Below are positions 8,087 to 30,552 of a stretch of DNA of 64,000 bases, one piece after another. Positions within the stretch are counted from its first letter, which is position 1, and the number at the start of each line of letters is the position of its first letter. The DNA lies in assembly GCA_040401975.1 (NCBI GenBank), contig JBBANL010000009.1, forward strand, positions 8,257 through 72,256, read 5' to 3'. The notes below the pieces were generated by a model. It was not told the origin of the DNA, did no database searches, and saw only the letters and a list, made by a program, of their open reading frames with translations. Source of the DNA: Ilumatobacteraceae bacterium (GTDB lineage: Bacteria > Actinomycetota > Acidimicrobiia > Acidimicrobiales > Ilumatobacteraceae). The translations under genes and the position numbers were made by a program.

Positions 8087-10750
8087 TCAGTTCAACTGTT
8101 CGCTGACACGGTCAATCGCGGTCTGGGTGATCTTGCGACCGTGCCGTGTCGACACCTCAAACCGGTCGGACACCGCGCCGTCAAACGTGCTGATGCGTGC
8201 GTGGTGGACATTGATCCGTGCCCGTGCGAACGCTGCCGCGATGGCCTGGACGAGTCCGGGCTGGTCCGAACCCGTCACCGTCACCACGCTGTGCCAGGGG
8301 TGGGCATCGTTGTCGAGAGACAGGGAGAGAACCGCGCCCGTATCCCGCATCAATCGGCGCGAATCATCGATTTTTCGGCGCAGGCGCTTCTCCAACTCAA
8401 CGGCTAATTGCGGCGCCTGGGGGCTTTGTTCGCTGCGCACTCGGAACGTGTCGAGAACTGCACCGTCGCCCCATGTCGCGAGGTCGGCATCGACAATCTC
8501 GAAGCCGCGCTCTGCGAGCACTGCGCAGATGCGGGCCAGCAAGCCGCGCATGTCGCGGGTCGCGATGTCGATCTCCCATTCGTTCGAGACGTCGGTGGCT
8601 CGAACGTTCACGCGCACGGTGCGAGGGCGCGGCGCCGGTTCGACCAGGGTGGCGTGTCTCACGAGCACCTCGGGTTCGTGTGCAAGCAGGTACACAGGGG
8701 CGGCGTTGCGCAGGCGTTCGATCACGAGCGGGTCGGTTGTCAGCGCAATCGCGTCGCGTCGACGGACTTCGACCAGAGAATTCTCGGAACCTTCGATGAG
8801 TTCGGGATGCGCGAGAAGTGTCTGCACGTTGGTGGTGATGTCGACGAGCACGGAGAACTGCCAGTCCTGCAGATCGCCCCTTGCCTCAGTCAGCAGCCTG
8901 CACCGCTCGACCATCACGGGGGTCGCGAGGAATCCGGCGAGCTGGGCGAGAACGCGGTTGTCGGGTTCGTACGGTTCGGTGGTGCACGCAACATGCAACA
9001 GGCTCGATGCCGACATCAACGAGCGGGTCTCCTCGCGCGTGGCGTCATCGAGTGCCAGCCGGTCGAGCAGGGTCGACGCATCGGAGCCGTCGGAGAAGTC
9101 GGAGATGAACGCCGCGAGCAACAACGACTCATCGGCCGGAGAGAGTCTGTTGGACAGTTTCTTCAGCGCTTCGAGAACCGGTGTCTGTGCGAGGTGTGTG
9201 GGGTCCAGTTCGCTCGCGTCGCCACGCCGCGAACGTAGTGCGCGGGCAATCTCGGGCAATGCGCGCTCGAGAACGTTCGTCACGTCGAGAAAACGCCACG
9301 AGCGGGCGTTGCCCCGCATCAGCAGTTCGAGCAGCAGGTCGGTGGCACGAGAGTCCCACGTCAGCGGCGTGGCCCGTGTGGCGTGCATCCAATCGAGCAG
9401 CGCAGTATTGGGTTGCGAATGTGCGGCATGAAGTGACGCCTCGAGAGCCAACGGCAGCACGAGATCGGTGGGGGGGACCCCGTGCAACTGAACCTCGCCG
9501 TCGATGGCCCGGATCCAGCCGCCGACCGGTTCGTCGGTGGTGGCGGGTTCCGTTGTCGCGGCCGCGGCATCGTTCTTCGAGATTCTCCAGCGCAACAACG
9601 GCGGGGTGATGACAGTGGTGACGAGAACCATCAAAAGCACCACCGCGTAGAGGTCGTCTTTGAACACCCCGACAGACACCCCGATTGATGCAAAAATCAA
9701 CCCGACTTCTCCGCGCGGAACCATGCCGAATCCGATGACCAGTTTGTCGGTGTTCGTGCCGAGCGCACCGAGAGCGGCAAGCATCTTTCCTGCAATCGCA
9801 ATGACAGAGAGAATCGCGGCAACAATCAGGACATGGCCGTCAAAGAACTTCGTGACGTCGGTGTCGATGCCGATCTGCATGAAGAACACGGGAATGAAAA
9901 TGCTGCCGAGCACTGCGAAGTCACGGGCGATGCGATCGTGGTGCTCGGTACGTGCCAGAGCAACCCCGGCGACGAAGGCTCCGATGATCGGCGCCAGCTT
10001 CGCTCCGCTCGCCGCGGCGGAAAATCCGAACGTGACGCCCGCGGCGACGACCCCGACCGTGACCGGTGACGCGGCACGTGAAGAGATCCACTTGATGATG
10101 CGGGGCAACAGCACGAGCCCGATTGCGCCCGCCACCACAAGGAATCCGACGGCGAGCCCGATTGTGCTTGCGAGTCCCGCTGCATCGATCGACCCCTGTT
10201 CGACGACCCGCGTGACCACCGTGAGGATGATCAGGCCGAGAACGTCGTCGGCAACGGCCGCGCCGAGAACGATTCGCGCCTCGGTTGACGACAGAGCCTT
10301 GAGGTCGCCGAAGACACGGGCGGTGATCCCGACGCTCGTGGCCGCCAGTGCCGCCCCGAGGAACAGTGAGGCATTCATGCTCTCGCCGAGCAAACCGCCC
10401 GCGATGACGCCGCTCGACATCGGCAGTGTCACACCGAGAATGGCCACGATGAACGACGCGCGTCCGACGCGTCGCAATTCATTGAGGTCCATCTCGAGCC
10501 CCACCTCGGCGAGCAGCACGATCACGCCGACCTCGGCGAGGACACGCAATGCATCACTCGGCTCGACGAGACCGAGGGCAGAGGGACCAATCAGGATTCC
10601 GGCAACGATCTCACCTAGAACTGCGGGCACGCCCGCCCGTTCGCACAATTCAGACGCAATCTTGGCGACGATGAGCACGATTGCCAGGGTTGCGAAGATC
10701 TGACCGAAGTCGACGCCCTGTGCGGCAGCAGAAAAAACCACGGCGATCAC
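8087..10750 (-). CDS. CPA2-family cation/proton antiporter fused to a GlnD-like C-terminal regulatory region with two ACT domains
   Basis: N-terminal ~420 aa are Kef-like (GEIVAGILIGPSALGL, AVADDVLGLIILTVV). The C-terminus carries two ACT-like units (WEIDIATRDMRGLLARICAVLAERGFEIVDADL..., HSVVTVTGSDQPGLVQAIAAAFARARINVHHARIS...). The start is set at GTG 10750, 2 nt after the stop of the upstream gene. An alternative ATG at 10819 would overlap that gene. Confidence 0.7.
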   Translation of the reverse strand: MIAVVFSAAAQGVDFGQIFATLAIVLIVAKIASELCERAGVPAVLGEIVAGILIGPSALGLVEPSDALRVLAEVGVIVLLAEVGLEMDLNELRRVGRASFIVAILGVTLPMSSGVIAGGLLGESMNASLFLGAALAATSVGITARVFGDLKALSSTEARIVLGAAVADDVLGLIILTVVTRVVEQGSIDAAGLASTIGLAVGFLVVAGAIGLVLLPRIIKWISSRAASPVTVGVVAAGVTFGFSAAASGAKLAPIIGAFVAGVALARTEHHDRIARDFAVLGSIFIPVFFMQIGIDTDVTKFFDGHVLIVAAILSVIAIAGKMLAALGALGTNTDKLVIGFGMVPRGEVGLIFASIGVSVGVFKDDLYAVVLLMVLVTTVITPPLLRWRISKNDAAAATTEPATTDEPVGGWIRAIDGEVQLHGVPPTDLVLPLALEASLHAAHSQPNTALLDWMHATRATPLTWDSRATDLLLELLMRGNARSWRFLDVTNVLERALPEIARALRSRRGDASELDPTHLAQTPVLEALKKLSNRLSPADESLLLAAFISDFSDGSDASTLLDRLALDDATREETRSLMSASSLLHVACTTEPYEPDNRVLAQLAGFLATPVMVERCRLLTEARGDLQDWQFSVLVDITTNVQTLLAHPELIEGSENSLVEVRRRDAIALTTDPLVIERLRNAAPVYLLAHEPEVLVRHATLVEPAPRPRTVRVNVRATDVSNEWEIDIATRDMRGLLARICAVLAERGFEIVDADLATWGDGAVLDTFRVRSEQSPQAPQLAVELEKRLRRKIDDSRRLMRDTGAVLSLSLDNDAHPWHSVVTVTGSDQPGLVQAIAAAFARARINVHHARISTFDGAVSDRFEVSTRHGRKITQTAIDRVSEQLN

Positions 10751-25402: not shown

Positions 25403-25432
25403 GCAGCCTGACGGGTCAATCAACTGTCGGTC

Positions 25433-25603
25433 TCACTCTGACGAGTCGTCATCGGTGGTCGTCGTCGGTGCCGGTCTGAAACCCCGGAGAAGTTGCGTGA
25501 CGAATTCACGCTTCTCGTCGTCGGACATCGTCCAGTAGGACTTCTCGATCGCGACAACCTTGATTGGCTCGTTGGAGTCTTTGTGTTCGGTGGAATCAGA
25601 CAT
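25433..25603 (-). CDS. 56-aa acidic mini-ORF (below the ORF-track size cut-off)
   Basis: Hand translation: MSDSTEHKDSNEPIKVVAIEKSYWTMSDDEKREFVTQLLRGFRPAPTTTTDDDSSE. Its ATG directly follows the TGA of the upstream phosphatase gene (TGAATG). Confidence 0.4.
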   Translation of the reverse strand: MSDSTEHKDSNEPIKVVAIEKSYWTMSDDEKREFVTQLLRGFRPAPTTTTDDDSSE

Positions 25604-26242
25604 TCAGCGACCGTTGATCGAGCTGATGACCCAGTATGCGTCGAGTGGGTTGCGTGCGAACCACCGCACAACCTCGTCGACCGCCTCACTCATCTCGTCG
25701 TAATTGCCGCCGTTGCGCGCCACCCACCATGCAGCGGCATCGGGCGCATACACGGTCGCCGCGATCGGGCGGGCCTGACGGATCGCGCGAAGCGCCGGAA
25801 GGGAATCCCACCCGCGGGTTCGCAGAATCGCGTAGGTCGCGGATGGTCCGCGGTTGCATCCGACCCAACATGTGACCATGAGGACTGCCCCCGGGGTCTC
25901 TTCGATCTCGCGTGCCTTTTCCGCGATGGCATCGAACCAGCGCGGGTCGCGACGGCCGAGATCGTCGTTGACGCCGATGTGATGAACTCGGATGTTCGAG
26001 TTGGCCTCGATGAATTCCTTCTCGCGGAATTCGAGATGCACCGGCATGTAGTCGGTGATGCCTTCAGCTTCCCAGCGGGCGAGTTGTTCACGTGCGATGT
26101 CGTGCTGTGGCGAGATTCCGCCGCTCATCGCGAGAGTGGGAGTCACGAAGCAGACCTCGCGCCACCAGAACATGGGGTCGAGGGGTCGCTGCGGAAGGTC
26201 GAGGGAATGAAGGGGAATGTCATTTATTGTCATGTTGACCAT
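25604..26242 (-). CDS. Dual-specificity/PTP-like phosphatase (CX5R P-loop)
   Basis: Trimmed to ATG 26242 (MVNMTINDIPL; alternative 26233). VLMVTCWVGCNRGPS contains C-x5-R, with an upstream GVNDDLGR candidate acid loop. Confidence 0.55.
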   Translation of the reverse strand: MVNMTINDIPLHSLDLPQRPLDPMFWWREVCFVTPTLAMSGGISPQHDIAREQLARWEAEGITDYMPVHLEFREKEFIEANSNIRVHHIGVNDDLGRRDPRWFDAIAEKAREIEETPGAVLMVTCWVGCNRGPSATYAILRTRGWDSLPALRAIRQARPIAATVYAPDAAAWWVARNGGNYDEMSEAVDEVVRWFARNPLDAYWVISSINGR

Positions 26243-26280
26243 TATGCCAAGGGGGTGTGTCGGGATTCCCGGAGCAGGCG

Positions 26281-26775
26281 TCAGCGGCACCACGGCGGTG
26301 ACGCCACCACGAAATCGAGAGTTGCAGAACAGGGGCGCAGCCCGCGGGTTTGCAATTCGGCCCAGATGTCGGCCAGTTCGCCGAGTCGAAGCGCGTCGCA
26401 GATGCGCGCGGCCTCGCCGAACAGGGTGATCGACGACCGGAACTTTCTCGCGTCGATGCCGCCGAGCACCTTCTTCAGTTCGTCGTACGCCGGCTCGTTC
26501 TGTGGCAGGTGCGAGAGAACGAGGCGACAGCACTCGACGTAGCGGTCGCGGAGGGTGGGATGTGTCAGATAATCGACCACTTCACTCATCGACCTGACTC
26601 CGAACTCGATTGCCATCTCGGAACTGCCGAGCCCCGAGATTTGAGGGAAGACGTACCACATCCAATGAGTCCGTTTGCGACCGACACGAAGCTCTGCAAG
26701 CGCATCGGGAAAGGTGTCACGCTGGTGCGTCGGGTGATTGCCCTGCTGGGTCAGAAGAAATCGTTCAACGGTCAT
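26281..26775 (-). CDS. DUF1810 family protein
   Basis: Trimmed to ATG 26775 (MTVERFLLTQ...), overlapping the upstream stop by 4 nt. GRKRTHWMWYVFPQISGLG and KFRSSITLF segments match the DUF1810 pattern as recalled. Confidence 0.65.
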   Translation of the reverse strand: MTVERFLLTQQGNHPTHQRDTFPDALAELRVGRKRTHWMWYVFPQISGLGSSEMAIEFGVRSMSEVVDYLTHPTLRDRYVECCRLVLSHLPQNEPAYDELKKVLGGIDARKFRSSITLFGEAARICDALRLGELADIWAELQTRGLRPCSATLDFVVASPPWCR

Positions 26776-27443
26776 TGTCCCTCCTCCGGAAACATCTCGT
26801 TGACGGCCTTTTCGAAACGTTCGAAGAGATCGCGGGTGCCGGGTGGGTACCCCTTCTTGTCGAACGCGGCGAGAAGTCCGCGGTACCACATGCGTTGGTG
26901 GTCGTATCCGACGTTGAACTTGGCCCACACGGTGTGTTCTTCTCCCGGCGATTTGCGCAGATCTGCCACCGTGTTTTCTGCGTTGTAGGTCTTGTCCGCC
27001 AGGGAGACCAACAGCGATTCGTCAGTAGCGGGCTTCGACGCAATCTTGTCGATGTAGGGCTTCTTCCGCGCTTCCCACCAGTGCTCGGCTTTCTGCTCAG
27101 CGGTCCAGTTCTCCTCGCGGGCCTGTTCCTTGTATTCCTGCTTTTTGGCGAACGTCGTGTCGGTGCAGCCCCACACGATGTCTGTGATGGCCGGGCCGAC
27201 TCGGAACTTGAGGATGTTGCGTTTGGTGGGAGTGTCCTCCAACAAGTCGTGCAAGAGTGCGCCGATGGTTTGTCTCTTGGATCCGCCTGCCTCGATCACG
27301 AGCGACGCGACTCCGAGAAGGTGGCCGAGATAGGGGATGTTGCTGCCTTTGCGAACCTCGTTTTCGTGACCTTTACCGGCGATGCGAATCGCTCGATAGA
27401 AGTTCTCGGTTGGTTTCCACAGGGGTTCTGTGTTGTGTGTCAT
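26772..27443 (-). CDS. HD-domain protein of the RelA/SpoT-hydrolase type (small-alarmone-hydrolase-like)
   Basis: 223 aa. YLGHLLGVASLV...ALLHDLLEDT and SLADKTYNAENT resemble the SpoT hydrolase HD motifs. Strong AAGGAG Shine-Dalgarno before ATG 27443. Confidence 0.65.
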   Translation of the reverse strand: MTHNTEPLWKPTENFYRAIRIAGKGHENEVRKGSNIPYLGHLLGVASLVIEAGGSKRQTIGALLHDLLEDTPTKRNILKFRVGPAITDIVWGCTDTTFAKKQEYKEQAREENWTAEQKAEHWWEARKKPYIDKIASKPATDESLLVSLADKTYNAENTVADLRKSPGEEHTVWAKFNVGYDHQRMWYRGLLAAFDKKGYPPGTRDLFERFEKAVNEMFPEEGQ

Positions 27444-27497
27444 GTGTGGCTCCTTTCTGAAGAGATCCGAAGAAAGAGTCGTGCCACGCAGCGAAGG

Positions 27498-27662
27498 TCA
27501 CGCGCCGCCACTCCCGGCGGCGCCGAGCACCGCCGCGATGATGATGACCCATCCGATGATCACGATCGGGAACACGATGGTGAGTGCGGCCAGAGCGAAG
27601 CACCAGAACGTGATCGCAAAAGTCCAGCCGATGCATCCGCCGCCGAATCGACTCGGTGTCAT
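27498..27662 (-). CDS. 54-aa predicted two-helix membrane mini-ORF (not in track)
   Basis: Hand translation: MTPSRFGGGCIGWTFAITFWCFALAALTIVFPIVIIGWVIIIAAVLGAAGSGGA. The Shine-Dalgarno is weak. Confidence 0.3.
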   Translation of the reverse strand: MTPSRFGGGCIGWTFAITFWCFALAALTIVFPIVIIGWVIIIAAVLGAAGSGGA

Positions 27663-27716
27663 GCGGGGAATCTCTTCATGTCTTTCACACTTTCAGCGTA
27701 CGGAACGGGTGTGTCG

Positions 27717-28151
27717 TCACGTGGTGGGGCAATTGTCGCTCACGAAGTTGTTGAAACGGGTTGATGCATCTACGACACCTTCTCGTTGGTTGATTGCGTC
27801 GAATTCCCTTCGGAGTTCCTCGTTCTTTGCAATTTCCACGAGGTCATAGTCGTGTGCGTCGAACAGGGCGTTTGTGTCGATCACGGATGAGACCAGAAGC
27901 GCCACATCGTCCTTGATCTCGTCGGGGCTCGTATCGCGCAGCTGCCGGGCATACGTTGCCGCCTTTGTCCACGTGTCTCGCATGATGTCCGGATCCGTGA
28001 TGGCAGCCGGATCCTCTCCGTGGGGCCCTGCAGCCGCGGATTCCATGCTTGCGGCAACGGAGCAGAATTCGGTGTAGTCGGCCGACGGAGCACCGGACGA
28101 GCAGGCAACCAGAGCCGGCACCAGCGCAATGAGAACGGCGAGCCGTCTCAC
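27717..28151 (-). CDS. Putative lipoprotein
   Basis: VRRLAVLIALVPALVAC lipobox. The start is set at GTG 28151, which overlaps the TGA of the upstream mini-ORF (GTGA). The track start is 28175. Confidence 0.6.
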   Translation of the reverse strand: MRRLAVLIALVPALVACSSGAPSADYTEFCSVAASMESAAAGPHGEDPAAITDPDIMRDTWTKAATYARQLRDTSPDEIKDDVALLVSSVIDTNALFDAHDYDLVEIAKNEELRREFDAINQREGVVDASTRFNNFVSDNCPTT

Positions 28152-28294
28152 TTCATGCCCAGGATTTTTCCCCACTTCTGTCGCCGTCCGGCCCGGGTGA
28201 GGGGAATGCCGGTCTTGCGCGAGATCTTGCGCTTGGCGGCGGTGATGCCGAGTGCGCGCTTCCAGGAGAATGTGAGTCCGGGTCCGAGTTTCAT
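28148..28294 (-). CDS. 48-aa highly basic mini-ORF (not in track)
   Basis: Hand translation: MKLGPGLTFSWKRALGITAAKRKISRKTGIPLTRAGRRQKWGKILGMK. Its stop is coupled to the lipoprotein GTG. Confidence 0.35.
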   Translation of the reverse strand: MKLGPGLTFSWKRALGITAAKRKISRKTGIPLTRAGRRQKWGKILGMK

Positions 28295-28350
28295 GGCCTG
28301 ACCGTATCAGTCGGTGCTTCGGTCGGTGCGGTGTCTGCGCCTGCGGCGGG

Positions 28351-28378
28351 TTCTGATCAGAAGCGATAATGGTAGAGT
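28351..28378. promoter_or_regulatory. Perfect 12-bp palindrome TTCTGATCAGAA overlapping a candidate promoter (TTCTGA-16 nt-TAGAGT)
   Basis: Read directly. It lies in the divergent region between the mini-ORFs at 28294 (minus) and 28412 (plus). GATAAT is also present at 28365. Confidence 0.35.
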
Positions 28379-28411
28379 GTACCCTAAACAGATGCGAGAA
28401 GGTGAACTCAC

Positions 28412-28621
28412 GTGGGAATTCTGAAGTGGTACGTCGTGTACCGGGTGGCGACCCGGGGGCGCAGGAGACGAAAGGCCGAAGCGCGGGCCAGGGAGACCCT
28501 CCAGACGGTCTTCGAGATCGCCGAGGACGACTCTGACGAGGCGCTCTTTGAGTTCTGTGACGAGTGCGGCGAGATTCTCGGCGACCATCTCATCGATGGA
28601 GAAGAGCTGGTGTGTCCCTGA
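28412..28621 (+). CDS. 69-aa ORF with a basic N-terminus, acidic centre and three C-terminal Cys
   Basis: GTG start preceded by GAAGGTGA. VGILKWYVVYRVATRGRRRRKAEARA...FCDECGEILGDHLIDGEELVCP. Coding status is uncertain. Confidence 0.35.
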   Translation: MGILKWYVVYRVATRGRRRRKAEARARETLQTVFEIAEDDSDEALFEFCDECGEILGDHLIDGEELVCP

Positions 28622-28629
28622 AACCCCTT

Positions 28630-28691
28630 GCAGTCAACAAGTTGTTTCACGCAATTGACTGCGAATCGCAGAAAATTGAAATTTTTATAAT
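28630..28691. promoter_or_regulatory. Nested palindromes plus a consensus TATAAT in an AT-rich spacer
   Basis: GCAGTCAA (28630)/TTGACTGC (28655), CAACAAGTTG (28635) and CTGCGAATCGCAG (28659), with TATAAT at 28686. A hand count of 28621..28720 gives about 43% GC. Confidence 0.4.
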
Positions 28692-28722
28692 GCCGCGAAG
28701 TACCCAACCAAAGGAGTCCCGA

Positions 28723-29385
28723 ATGACCCGAAATCTGCCCGAATACGTGATGAACGACAGGTGGGCGCGCCTCAGAGCCCTCTCGTTCGAGATCGACTTC
28801 CACTCCGAAATCGACCAACGACTGAATCGCGCCCGGAGCCCGATCGACAGTTTGATGTTTCCTTTCCACATGGCGATCGGTGCGGCCGGACTCGTGCGGC
28901 CATTCGACTGGACCACATGGGAAGCGCCGATGTTGACCATCGAGATGGTGCCGAACCTGAACGACGAGATGGCACGCAAGCACATGACCCGCATCGTGCG
29001 CGCCGACCGTTTCAACGAGGGGGTCTTCGATTCGTATGCACGCTCCGGGGTTCTGACCGCGCTCGCACGTCATCTTTACGAATTGCGACAGACGGAGAAC
29101 GGGTGGCCGACCGACTTTGCGGTGAACCCGGACGGTTCGGTGGAATCCGGCATCGCATTGGTGGCAGGTCGCGGTGTGATTCGTGGGCTCACCAACGGCC
29201 GTCGTTATCGGTGTCCCGAGTGCAGAGGCGGCTGGAGTCTCGAGTGCGAATTGCGGGGCGGTCATGTCGTGAGGGTGTGCTCGCGGGATTGGCATTTTCT
29301 CGCCGACCGCCGGGAGGTTCGCGTGTTGAATCCGAGTCCGCTGCAGCAGGTGTTCAGGAAGCCGCGGCCCAGCGTGCGATCGTGA
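28723..29385 (+). CDS. DUF6508-like domain protein with a C-terminal Cys-cluster (zinc-ribbon-like) extension
   Basis: ATG 28723 lies 7 nt after AAAGGAG. FDWTTWEAP...KHMTRIVRADRFNEGVFDSYARSGVLTALARHLYEL matches the recalled DUF6508 pattern. The C-terminus is RYRCPECRGGWSLECELRGGHVVRVC. Confidence 0.5.
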   Translation: MTRNLPEYVMNDRWARLRALSFEIDFHSEIDQRLNRARSPIDSLMFPFHMAIGAAGLVRPFDWTTWEAPMLTIEMVPNLNDEMARKHMTRIVRADRFNEGVFDSYARSGVLTALARHLYELRQTENGWPTDFAVNPDGSVESGIALVAGRGVIRGLTNGRRYRCPECRGGWSLECELRGGHVVRVCSRDWHFLADRREVRVLNPSPLQQVFRKPRPSVRS

Positions 29386-30253
29386 GGCGGTGCCACGCGA
29401 CGACATCGTCGATTGTGTAGCGACCCCAGGTGTAGCCGCCCGCGAGACCGAAAATCGCCGGGGTGTCACCGATGAAGGTGCGGACCAGACGTTCGCGGAT
29501 CCGCAGGTCGCTCTCTGAGACTCCGCTGTTGCGGACATCGACACCCGCGTTGTAGGCGATGAAGTCGAACTTCTCCAGCGTCGATGCGTAGTCGAGCGCC
29601 TTCTCCACCGCCTTGCGGTAGCCGTCGGGGGACACTATGTCGAGTCGGCTGTCGCCTTCGGGTTGCCATGTGTCGAATGCCGACACCGTGACGTCGACCT
29701 GCACGACGTCGCTGTCGAACTTGCGGCTGATGATGTCCCATGTTCCGCCTCCCGCGTGTGCGTCGAGGTCGAGGCAGAGAATCCGACCGGCTCCGAGTTG
29801 TCGTGCCGCATGGATCGCAGCGGCAAGACCGTTGAACGTGCAGTACCCGGCACCGCGATCGTGTGCTGCATGGTGCATGCCCGAACTGAGGCTGCCCGAG
29901 CAGCGGTTGTTGGTGAGCGCATCGTGGGTCGCCGCAATCATTCCCGCGACGTGAGCACGTGCCATGACGTAGATGCCGGGGTCCCACGAGAACGAGCTCG
30001 TCTGCGCGAGCTGTCGCGGCTTTCCTGTTCTGACAGCCGTCACGTATTTCTCGGAATGAATCCATGCAATGACCTCCTCGGCCAGTTCGTAGAGAACAGA
30101 CGGATCGGAGATCGCGACGGGGGAGATGGGGTCATCAATGAGCGACTGTGCGATGTCGATCGCCTTGCGCGTGGTGTCGAATTCGTAGTTGCTGGCGCCG
30201 TAATCGGCATTGTGGAAGATGCGAAGTATGGAACGGACAAGTTGGTTCTGCAT
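29354..30253 (-). CDS. Small histone-deacetylase-family (arginase/deacetylase fold) amidohydrolase
   Basis: Trimmed to ATG 30253 (MQNQLVRSIL...) behind GAAGGAGA. SGMHHA...GYCTFNG, DLDAHAGGGT, YNAGVD and GGY motifs correspond to the HDAC metal and catalytic residues. Confidence 0.7.
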   Translation of the reverse strand: MQNQLVRSILRIFHNADYGASNYEFDTTRKAIDIAQSLIDDPISPVAISDPSVLYELAEEVIAWIHSEKYVTAVRTGKPRQLAQTSSFSWDPGIYVMARAHVAGMIAATHDALTNNRCSGSLSSGMHHAAHDRGAGYCTFNGLAAAIHAARQLGAGRILCLDLDAHAGGGTWDIISRKFDSDVVQVDVTVSAFDTWQPEGDSRLDIVSPDGYRKAVEKALDYASTLEKFDFIAYNAGVDVRNSGVSESDLRIRERLVRTFIGDTPAIFGLAGGYTWGRYTIDDVVAWHRLTIARWAAAS

Positions 30254-30358
30254 GGGTCTCCTTCTGGTTGGGGGGAAGCAAGTGTGACAAGTCCCTGTGT
30301 CAATATTTGTAGAAGCGACACTAAATAGGGTCGGCACTGAGACGTCCGAAGTGGCGCT

Positions 30359-30384
30359 CGTGGACGGCGGGAGATTCGTCCACG
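30359..30384 (+). promoter_or_regulatory. Hairpin in the rho 5' leader (CGTGGACG-10 nt-CGTCCACG)
   Basis: Perfect 8-bp inverted repeat read directly, about 170 nt upstream of the rho ATG. Confidence 0.35.
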
Positions 30385-30552
30385 GTCGTTGCCAAATCGG
30401 GCGATCGGGGCTAAGGTGAGGGTCGCTCGGTTGTCCGAGTTCTCCCCGCCCTCGTTGAGGGGGGTCGAGATTCCCCAATGCGTTCAGCGCTCCGGTGCAT
30501 GGCGCACAGCCCCTCATTCGGTCACGAAAAGACCGCAGGAAAGCAGGAAATC

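Follow-up and report, generated by a model that had tools for sequence, protein, structure and literature searches.

The 64,000-nt window analysed here (the whole stretch from position 8,257 to position 72,256 of contig JBBANL010000009.1) comes from a metagenome-assembled genome (MAG; 2.0 Mb, 62% GC) of an Ilumatobacteraceae bacterium, and its gap between thrC and rho is a variable gene island of a small-genome, freshwater genus of this family (Acidimicrobiia). Two convergent genes of the island are considered, one encoding a 220-amino-acid (aa) protein with a DUF6508 domain and the other a 299-aa, predicted zinc-dependent deacylase of the histone deacetylase (HDAC) fold. Our favoured interpretation, which we judge to have an even chance of being correct, is that both genes serve as accessory components of a conflict system of the ADP-ribose type, in which the deacylase and a phosphatase would act as an eraser pair and the DUF6508 protein as an adaptor or sensor. 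The robust partner of the HDAC gene is a CX5R phosphatase, not DUF6508, and this pairing is found in host genomes and on phage contigs.

The HDAC-fold protein and its phosphatase partner

Gene neighbourhoods were compared in a set of 37 host HDAC loci. A CX5R phosphatase of the DSP or rhodanese type was present within 2.5 kb of the HDAC gene in 14 of these, often abutting it or overlapping it by a few bases, and ARPP-1 (PF20208, E 2.8e-69) stood beside it in five. At least one gene for DSP, ARPP, Nudix-NrtR, vWA, ADP-ribosylglycohydrolase (ARG), HD or DUF6508 proteins was found nearby in 26 loci. A same-genus locus (L077) has a contiguous run of ARG-DSP fusion, Nudix-NrtR, DSP and HDAC genes, and in L067 the order is Nudix-NrtR, vWA, HDAC. 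In the window's own genome, contig C1 carries ARG-DSP with NrtR, and contig C2 carries ARPP-1. Outside the family, the HDAC loci of four genomes had no phosphatase within 1.5 kb. The HDAC subfamily itself is patchily distributed, being detected in 25 of 201 genomes of the family and in five of 401 genomes of the phylum, the window's genome counted.

A further protein of approximately 340–390 aa recurs beside the DSP-HDAC pair (L034–L038, L040–L042, L061, L062, L074 and L091). It showed only weak matches resembling a helix-turn-helix (HTH) domain (IclR HTH, E 7e-4; sigma-70 r2/r4, E 0.018), and may be a regulator of the pair.

Phages also carry the HDAC subfamily of the window. An alignment-based scan detected it on 32 IMG/VR contigs, the highest full-length identity being 52%, and a single-sequence scan of viral contigs returned none. 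Other carriers are a phage-like metagenome contig of 133 kb and a cultured actinophage, Rhodococcus phage E3, whose gp202 (“putative histone deacetylase protein”) is 42% identical to the window enzyme over 95% of the protein. In 12 viral loci the HDAC gene is abutted upstream by the gene for a protein of about 160 aa with the sequence HCHAGMSRS, a canonical CX5R loop, the DSPc matches of these viral proteins lying below the Pfam cut-off. Phage E3 differs in that no CX5R phosphatase gene was detected beside gp202, which lies just ahead of the virion structural genes. Host and viral HDACs interleave in a maximum-likelihood tree, where the window's clade (8 rows, support 99/98) is nested in a 28-row clade (95/95) with viral phosphatase-HDAC cassettes. 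A literature search on phage HDACs yielded nothing useful. Six viral loci (L098, L101, L103, L106, L110 and L055) encode a 390–970-aa protein just downstream of the HDAC of the phosphatase-HDAC pair, without a Pfam family and with a shared GDGDGF-x-TGP-x-G-x-DN-x-P motif near the N-terminus.

The HDAC assignment, made in a first-pass annotation of the window from its letters and open reading frames (ORFs), is supported by a match to PF00850 (E 7.3e-21) and by the HDAC fold of an AlphaFold 2 (AF2) model (pLDDT 91.5). A GGAGA sequence lies upstream of the ATG, and the alignment of homologues supports the 299-aa start. The metal ligands and the catalytic HH and GGY motifs that this annotation had read from the protein are indeed retained: the catalytic set consists of H127/H128 in SSGMHHA, D162, D164 and H166 in DLDAH, D239 in NAGVD and Y274 in AGGY, of which H127, H128, D164, H166, D239 and Y274 are at least 90% conserved across 26 homologues. 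With these residues in place the enzyme looks catalytically competent.

In a sequence search of the PDB the nearest entries were Vibrio cholerae HdaH (VcHdaH, 9gkv) and the HDAC11-like 9rje and 9gz5. The family profile matched 9gkv at E 1.1e-33, with class I and II far weaker (class I approximately 1e-11). Foldseek returned 450 PDB matches at E ≤0.001 for the model, the best 50 of the 450 all being HDAC-family chains, with TM-scores of 0.84 to VcHdaH (9gky), 0.81 to Leptospira HDAC11 (9gz5) and 0.78 to 5ZMP, a 305-aa lysine deacylase. The loop before the His pair reads SSGMHH, and the RPP motif of classes I and II is absent. Graf et al. group enzymes of this kind with human HDAC11 as “cluster 5”, report long-chain deacylase activity, and describe loops (SGGYHH and GGGFHH) in which a Gly/Ser-rich stretch replaces the RPP motif (PMC11532494).

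Judged by its sequence and modelled fold, the 299-aa enzyme is a class IV / cluster 5-type (HDAC11 / Vibrio HdaH-like) deacylase. Because it belongs to this group, whose members have about 300–320 aa, its length is normal, and the earlier description of a minimal HDAC, shorter than typical, does not hold. VcHdaH (cluster 5b; 9GKV/9GKY, 318 aa) and HDAC11 (9GZ5) are its best matches in sequence and fold and share with it a length of around 300 aa, the full catalytic set, an SSG-x-HH-type loop in place of RPP and the AGGY motif; identity to them is, however, only ~21–23%. The setting also differs, as the phosphatase, ARPP and NrtR neighbours and the phage carriage seen here are not described for those enzymes in the passages of PMC11532494 consulted. 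A grouping with AcuC was rejected on the weaker class I-like matches and the lack of acu genes in the neighbourhood. AcuC and the acetylpolyamine amidohydrolases (APAH; clusters 2c and 4) have the HDAC fold and zinc chemistry in common with the window enzyme, but are longer and match it less well, the APAH TM-score to the model being ~0.74.

Outside the window, the same genome has a second HDAC-family gene, 36–38% identical (G000 contig C15, 33220–34143; L039, 7220–8143), in which NR stands in place of HH, DCDRD in place of DxDxH and GGT in place of GGY. With the catalytic set lost, its product is probably a pseudoenzyme. GC content is lower around this gene, and its surroundings include a Schlafen-group-3 helicase (PF09848, E 9e-98) and an EEP-family gene.

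The DUF6508 protein and its associations

In agreement with the first-pass annotation, the 220-aa protein exceeds the curated cut-off of Pfam DUF6508 (PF20118), with 40.9 bits against 23.6 (E 2.2e-10), the match spanning residues 48–123 and only profile positions 50–128 of 129. The ORF opens with an ATG preceded by AAAGGAG 7 nt upstream. Its orthologues, 35–78% identical and found in Ilumatobacteraceae MAGs, align with T89, R93, R96, F97 and G100 invariant. These residues form the motif T-x3-R-x2-R-F-x2-G, the columns of which are at least 90% conserved across 32 diverse DUF6508 proteins, where it is the sole nearly invariant feature. The AF2 model (pLDDT 89.4, pTM 0.87) is all-alpha to residue 123 and continues into a small beta domain. 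Foldseek found no significant match for the protein in the PDB or BFVD (best E 0.17 and 0.046), the weak matches of the beta domain being to the reaction-centre H subunit (PRC barrel). The same comparison gave no support to the TY-chaperone of the ARG-centric systems paper (PMC9503650) as the identity of the DUF6508 protein.

The C-terminal CPEC...C...C cluster picked out in the first-pass annotation is present but is only partly conserved. Four cysteines occur (C164, C167, C175 and C186); close homologues keep C164, C167, C186 and W190-H191 but not C175. The CxxC...C...H set is confined to the window's close subfamily, and two more distant orthologues are without the cysteines. An exhaustive profile search showed that the beta domain also stands alone in many unannotated proteins without a Pfam family. 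Across this wider family conservation is limited to an EGRTTG-like motif and the positions of C164 and C186, and the genomic context of the stand-alone domain (dapB; once a GmrSD neighbour) is uninformative. A zinc site in the C-terminal domain is possible, but is not a feature of the family.

Directly upstream of the DUF6508 gene in every locus is the gene for a small protein, p69, whose N-terminus is very basic (RGRRRRK) and whose C-x2-C-x6-H-x8-C set is invariant. Its homologues in seven other loci are 52–78% identical, vary in length from 67 to 74 aa and keep the CCHC set without exception. The spacer between the two genes is shorter in relatives than in the window, where a consensus scan gave no sigma-70-like promoter.

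DUF6508 was said in the first-pass annotation to be usually fused behind macrodomains, which had suggested an ADP-ribose theme for the gene pair. None of about 40 DUF6508 proteins scanned contained a Macro domain, so the fusion claim was not borne out; this sample of proteins or loci is biased towards relatives of the query, and Macro links elsewhere are possible. The fusions detected in it were to ARG (n = 3), DSP phosphatase (n = 2), DUF1643 (n = 1) and HNH (n = 1). They include a DSP phosphatase-ARG-DUF6508 fusion (L045), two proteins with DUF6508 fused to ARG (P0216 and P0273) and one with DUF6508 fused to a DSP phosphatase (P0277). Furthermore, an ARG gene adjoins the DUF6508 gene in L051, and in a same-genus genome (G016, L031) a full-length homologue of the window protein shares an operon with a Nudix-NrtR regulator, this operon and an ARG-DSP fusion gene being divergently oriented. 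Given these links to ARG, DSP and Nudix-NrtR, the ADP-ribose theme itself is right, although the Macro link on which it was based was not seen.

In another actinobacterium (G457 contig C20; L049, 1480–3317), the DUF6508 gene encodes 157 aa and its start overlaps the end of the gene for a type I restriction S subunit (Methylase_S, E 3e-12). An alignment scan of viral contigs detected no DUF6508, and in literature searches the term “DUF6508” was not found and “DUF1810”, the family of a neighbouring island gene, appeared only in incidental mentions.

The thrC–rho island

The features of the island are listed in Table 1. In genomes that carry the HDAC-DUF6508 pair, the gene order is DSP, DUF1810 (in some), HD, lipoprotein, p69, DUF6508 and HDAC. 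The HD_4 and lipoprotein-like genes are kept across orthologous islands; DUF1810 is present in some and missing from others. Among same-genus genomes the content of the island differs further by the presence or absence of DUF6508, a 530-aa gene, SIR2_2 and DSP. No direct or inverted flanking repeats marking an integration site were found at the island boundaries. NCBIfam returned nothing for the DUF6508 protein or the HDAC and, among the island proteins, only the partial RelA/SpoT matches of the HD protein; the 152-aa lipoprotein-like protein had no family match in Pfam or NCBIfam.

Table 1. Features of the thrC–rho island in the window (positions of the 64,000-nt stretch)
Feature	Position	Strand	Basis or remark
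CX5R (CWVGCNR) phosphatase, DSP / rhodanese-phosphatase type	25604..26242	-	Weak DSPc match, E 0.0011; a 46%-identical homologue passes Pfam DSPc, E 2.3e-10
DUF1810 protein	26281..26928	-	PF08837, E 4.4e-34; ORF limits, true start probably further in
Small HD phosphohydrolase, HD_4 (RelA/SpoT-hydrolase-like)	26772..27443	-	PF13328, E 2.2e-13; partial match to TIGR00691
Lipoprotein-like 152-aa protein	27717..28175	-	Signal peptide and Cys in the sequence
p69 small protein	28412..28621	+	Basic N-terminus; invariant C49, C52, H59, C68
Spacer, p69 to DUF6508 gene	28622..28722	+	Ends in Shine-Dalgarno AAAGGAG
220-aa two-domain protein, DUF6508 and C-terminal beta domain	28723..29385	+	PF20118; AF2 model
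DUF6508 core, residues 48–123	28864..29091	+	Pfam match; motif T89-x3-R93-x2-R96-F97-x2-G100
C-terminal beta domain, residues ~124–205	29092..29337	+	C164, C167, C186, W190-H191
299-aa class IV / cluster 5-type Zn-dependent deacylase (predicted), HDAC fold	29354..30253	-	PF00850; catalytic residues intact
Convergent 3' overlap of the two genes, 32 nt	29354..29385	.	Positions of both stop codons

Relatives were searched for in 185,579 species genomes. All full-length relatives found came from Ilumatobacteraceae MAGs, some of them titled “uncultured Bifidobacterium”, and the HDAC gene was convergently downstream of the DUF6508 gene in all eight relatives with enough flanking sequence. In one additional genome the DUF6508 protein is short (134 aa) and the HDAC 51% identical; the two genes are arranged in the same way and overlap by 17 nt. 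The pair is syntenic in about ten freshwater Ilumatobacteraceae genomes, as is the whole thrC–rho island in all of them.

Four of the records, CAYRUT010000053.1 (L131), CAZENK010000037.1 (L132), CAZCZM010000083.1 (L135) and CAZRHK010000099.1 (L138), are titled “uncultured Bifidobacterium sp.” and carry an Ilumatobacteraceae-type hom-thrC-island-rho block with flanking core proteins 87–97% identical; the title is probably a labelling error.

Several other observations concern the island alone. In one same-genus genome (G011 contig C6; L029, 6643–7824), the rho-adjoining HDAC is followed by a SIR2_2 (PF13289) protein, a type common in NAD-depleting defence systems, and in this respect the thrC–rho gap resembles a hotspot for genes of the defence type. 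A conserved protein of about 530–560 aa, with no Pfam family and absent from the window, adjoins the HDAC in several relatives (L025, 1947–3632; L027, 3701–5296; L032, 1904–3490; L036, 417–2063), and is placed between HDAC and rho in the first three of these. In many actinobacteria thrB sits between thrC and rho; it is absent from the thrC–rho gap of the window (25403–30552), the part of the genome searched for it. Just upstream of the lipoprotein gene, on the minus strand (28150–28295), a very basic 48-aa ORF (MKLGPGLTFSWKRALGITAAKRKISRKTGIPL...) showed no Pfam match.

Interpretation and rival explanations

The closest known parallel is provided by the ARG-centric ADP-ribose systems of Iyer, Burroughs, Anantharaman and Aravind (2022), which are predicted to act against viral ADP-ribosylation and whose listed components are R-P phosphatase, alarmone-type HD phosphatase, a Nudix or WYL regulator, vWA and ARPP (PMC9503650, section 3.8). 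The recurrent neighbours of the HDAC and DUF6508 genes are of the same types, comprising rhodanese/DSP-type and alarmone-type HD phosphatases, Nudix-NrtR, vWA and ARPP, and the island has coupled phosphatases of its own in the CX5R and HD_4 proteins. Also shared are the actinobacterial occurrence, the strong variability between close genomes, with a core and variable accessory genes in the island, and the fusion of DUF6508 to ARG and phosphatase in other genomes. The systems differ in that an HDAC-fold enzyme occupies the enzymatic slot here. HDAC does not occur in the main text of PMC9503650; the same paper pairs ARPP with a deacetylase of a different fold, PF01522, which parallels the ARPP-HDAC pairs found here.

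Across the family and phage contigs the HDAC travels with the CX5R phosphatase, often also near ARPP-1, Nudix-NrtR or vWA, and sits where ARG-centric systems usually carry an ARG. We propose that deacylase and phosphatase would be an eraser pair that takes off an acyl group as well as a terminal phosphate. The substrate would be a modified protein or else a sugar adduct or signal of the ADP-ribose type, for instance O-acetyl-ADP-ribose or ADP-ribose phosphate. The DUF6508 domain, apparently non-catalytic and all-alpha with invariant Arg and aromatic residues, may bind the nucleotide ligand or the target, and would serve as an adaptor or sensor with p69 as a small, putative zinc-knuckle partner.

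A number of observations weigh against this proposal. The HDAC-DUF6508 adjacency cannot be separated from common descent, because the whole island was inherited together in one lineage. The pair does recur in other genomes, as noted above, but only within that lineage, and each gene is found without the other: the HDAC adjoins rho without DUF6508 in seven same-genus genomes (L032–L036, L061 and L062), p69-DUF6508 adjoins rho without HDAC in G036 (L087), and no HDAC lies beside the DUF6508 gene in G016 (L031). None of nine DUF6508 loci from other actinobacterial lineages had an HDAC within 8 kb. About a quarter of the host HDAC loci have none of the conflict-type neighbours counted above, no PADLOC model matches any island protein, and the window's island is without ARG, Nudix/WYL regulator and chaperone, the ARG-DSP and NrtR genes of the genome being on contig C1. 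The ARG-centric systems are themselves only predictions, and the known relatives VcHdaH and HDAC11 remove long-chain acyl groups from lysine (PMC11532494).

In the main rival explanation, the HDAC is an ordinary, housekeeping HDAC11 / HdaH lysine deacylase and DUF6508 an unrelated neighbour, both deposited in a thrC–rho recombination hotspot and inherited vertically thereafter. Its closest solved relatives being lysine de-fatty-acylases, the confinement of the pair to one lineage with whole-island synteny, the occurrence of each gene without the other and the variation of island content between species (a SIR2_2 or 530-aa gene beside the HDAC in others) all agree with such an origin. We nevertheless consider it rather improbable, as it does not explain why, on phage contigs and in several genera, HDAC and CX5R phosphatase are repeatedly paired and often abut, nor why HDAC is paired with ARPP-1, NrtR and vWA. 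A housekeeping role also does not fit a gene which is so patchily distributed in the family and phylum and is exchanged with viruses.

Less likely again is a small-molecule module unrelated to ADP-ribose, in which a sugar or polyamine intermediate would lose a phosphate to the phosphatase and an N-acetyl group to the deacetylase, phages carrying the two genes as an auxiliary metabolic pair. The HDAC fold includes acetylpolyamine amidohydrolases, with the TM-score to the model given above, and a 2026 study reports one HDAC11 clade (clade A) to be inactive on peptides, suggesting that its members may have non-peptide substrates (PMC13325672). A phosphatase-deacylase gene pair is, moreover, the conserved core of the loci. 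Mycothiol synthesis, which has both phosphatase and deacetylase steps, offers an analogy for such a module, but mycothiol deacetylase has a different fold. No biosynthetic genes (glycosyltransferase, ligase or polyamine enzymes) were present beside the pair in the loci examined, the recurrent neighbours instead being ARPP-1, Nudix-NrtR, vWA and ARG-DSP, and we regard this explanation as unlikely. The 32-nt convergent overlap of the two 3' ends, correctly located in the first-pass annotation, had raised the further idea that convergent transcription, by transcriptional interference or antisense RNA, couples expression of the two genes. Consistent with this, a convergent arrangement, overlapping or abutting, is kept in all orthologous loci, and without a terminator between the DUF6508 and HDAC genes read-through into the partner would be likely. 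The overlap is, however, ordinary for the window's genome: crude gene calls based on GC content at third codon positions gave 357 convergent pairs, of which 131 (37%) overlap, 45 (13%) by at least 30 nt. Its length is not conserved: orthologous loci have overlaps of about 4 to 32 nt. The overlap contains no promoter-like or terminator-like site and its RNA folds no better than shuffled sequence (z -0.10). The HDAC, furthermore, keeps its position adjoining rho in genomes without the DUF6508 gene. Specific support for interference via the overlap is therefore lacking and we consider expression coupling very improbable; the overlap probably reflects genome compaction rather than a dedicated regulatory device.

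Returning to the ADP-ribose-type conflict system, a more specific version can be put forward, tentatively and with considerable doubt. The phosphatase and the class IV HDAC would be a two-enzyme eraser cassette common to freshwater actinobacteria and their phages, which replaces or supplements ARG and acts on a ribose adduct or signal that is both acylated and phosphorylated, with DUF6508, the beta domain and p69 as the unit that recognises ligand or target. If this were true, the HDAC fold would gain a substrate other than lysine, namely a nucleotide sugar, and would take part in phage-host conflict. The HDAC-fold component and its phage-shared pairing with a CX5R phosphatase have apparently not been described before, as judged from the main text of PMC9503650.

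Should the HDAC be a plain lysine deacylase, the finding would shrink to an ordinary accessory island. Very little is known of what bacterial class IV deacylases do physiologically, and the locus described here links them to the predicted ARG-centric systems. If our favoured interpretation is correct, it would point to substrates of a new class for the HDAC fold, would add a new enzymatic arm to ADP-ribose-based phage-host conflict, and would give DUF6508 and the unnamed beta domain a testable role.

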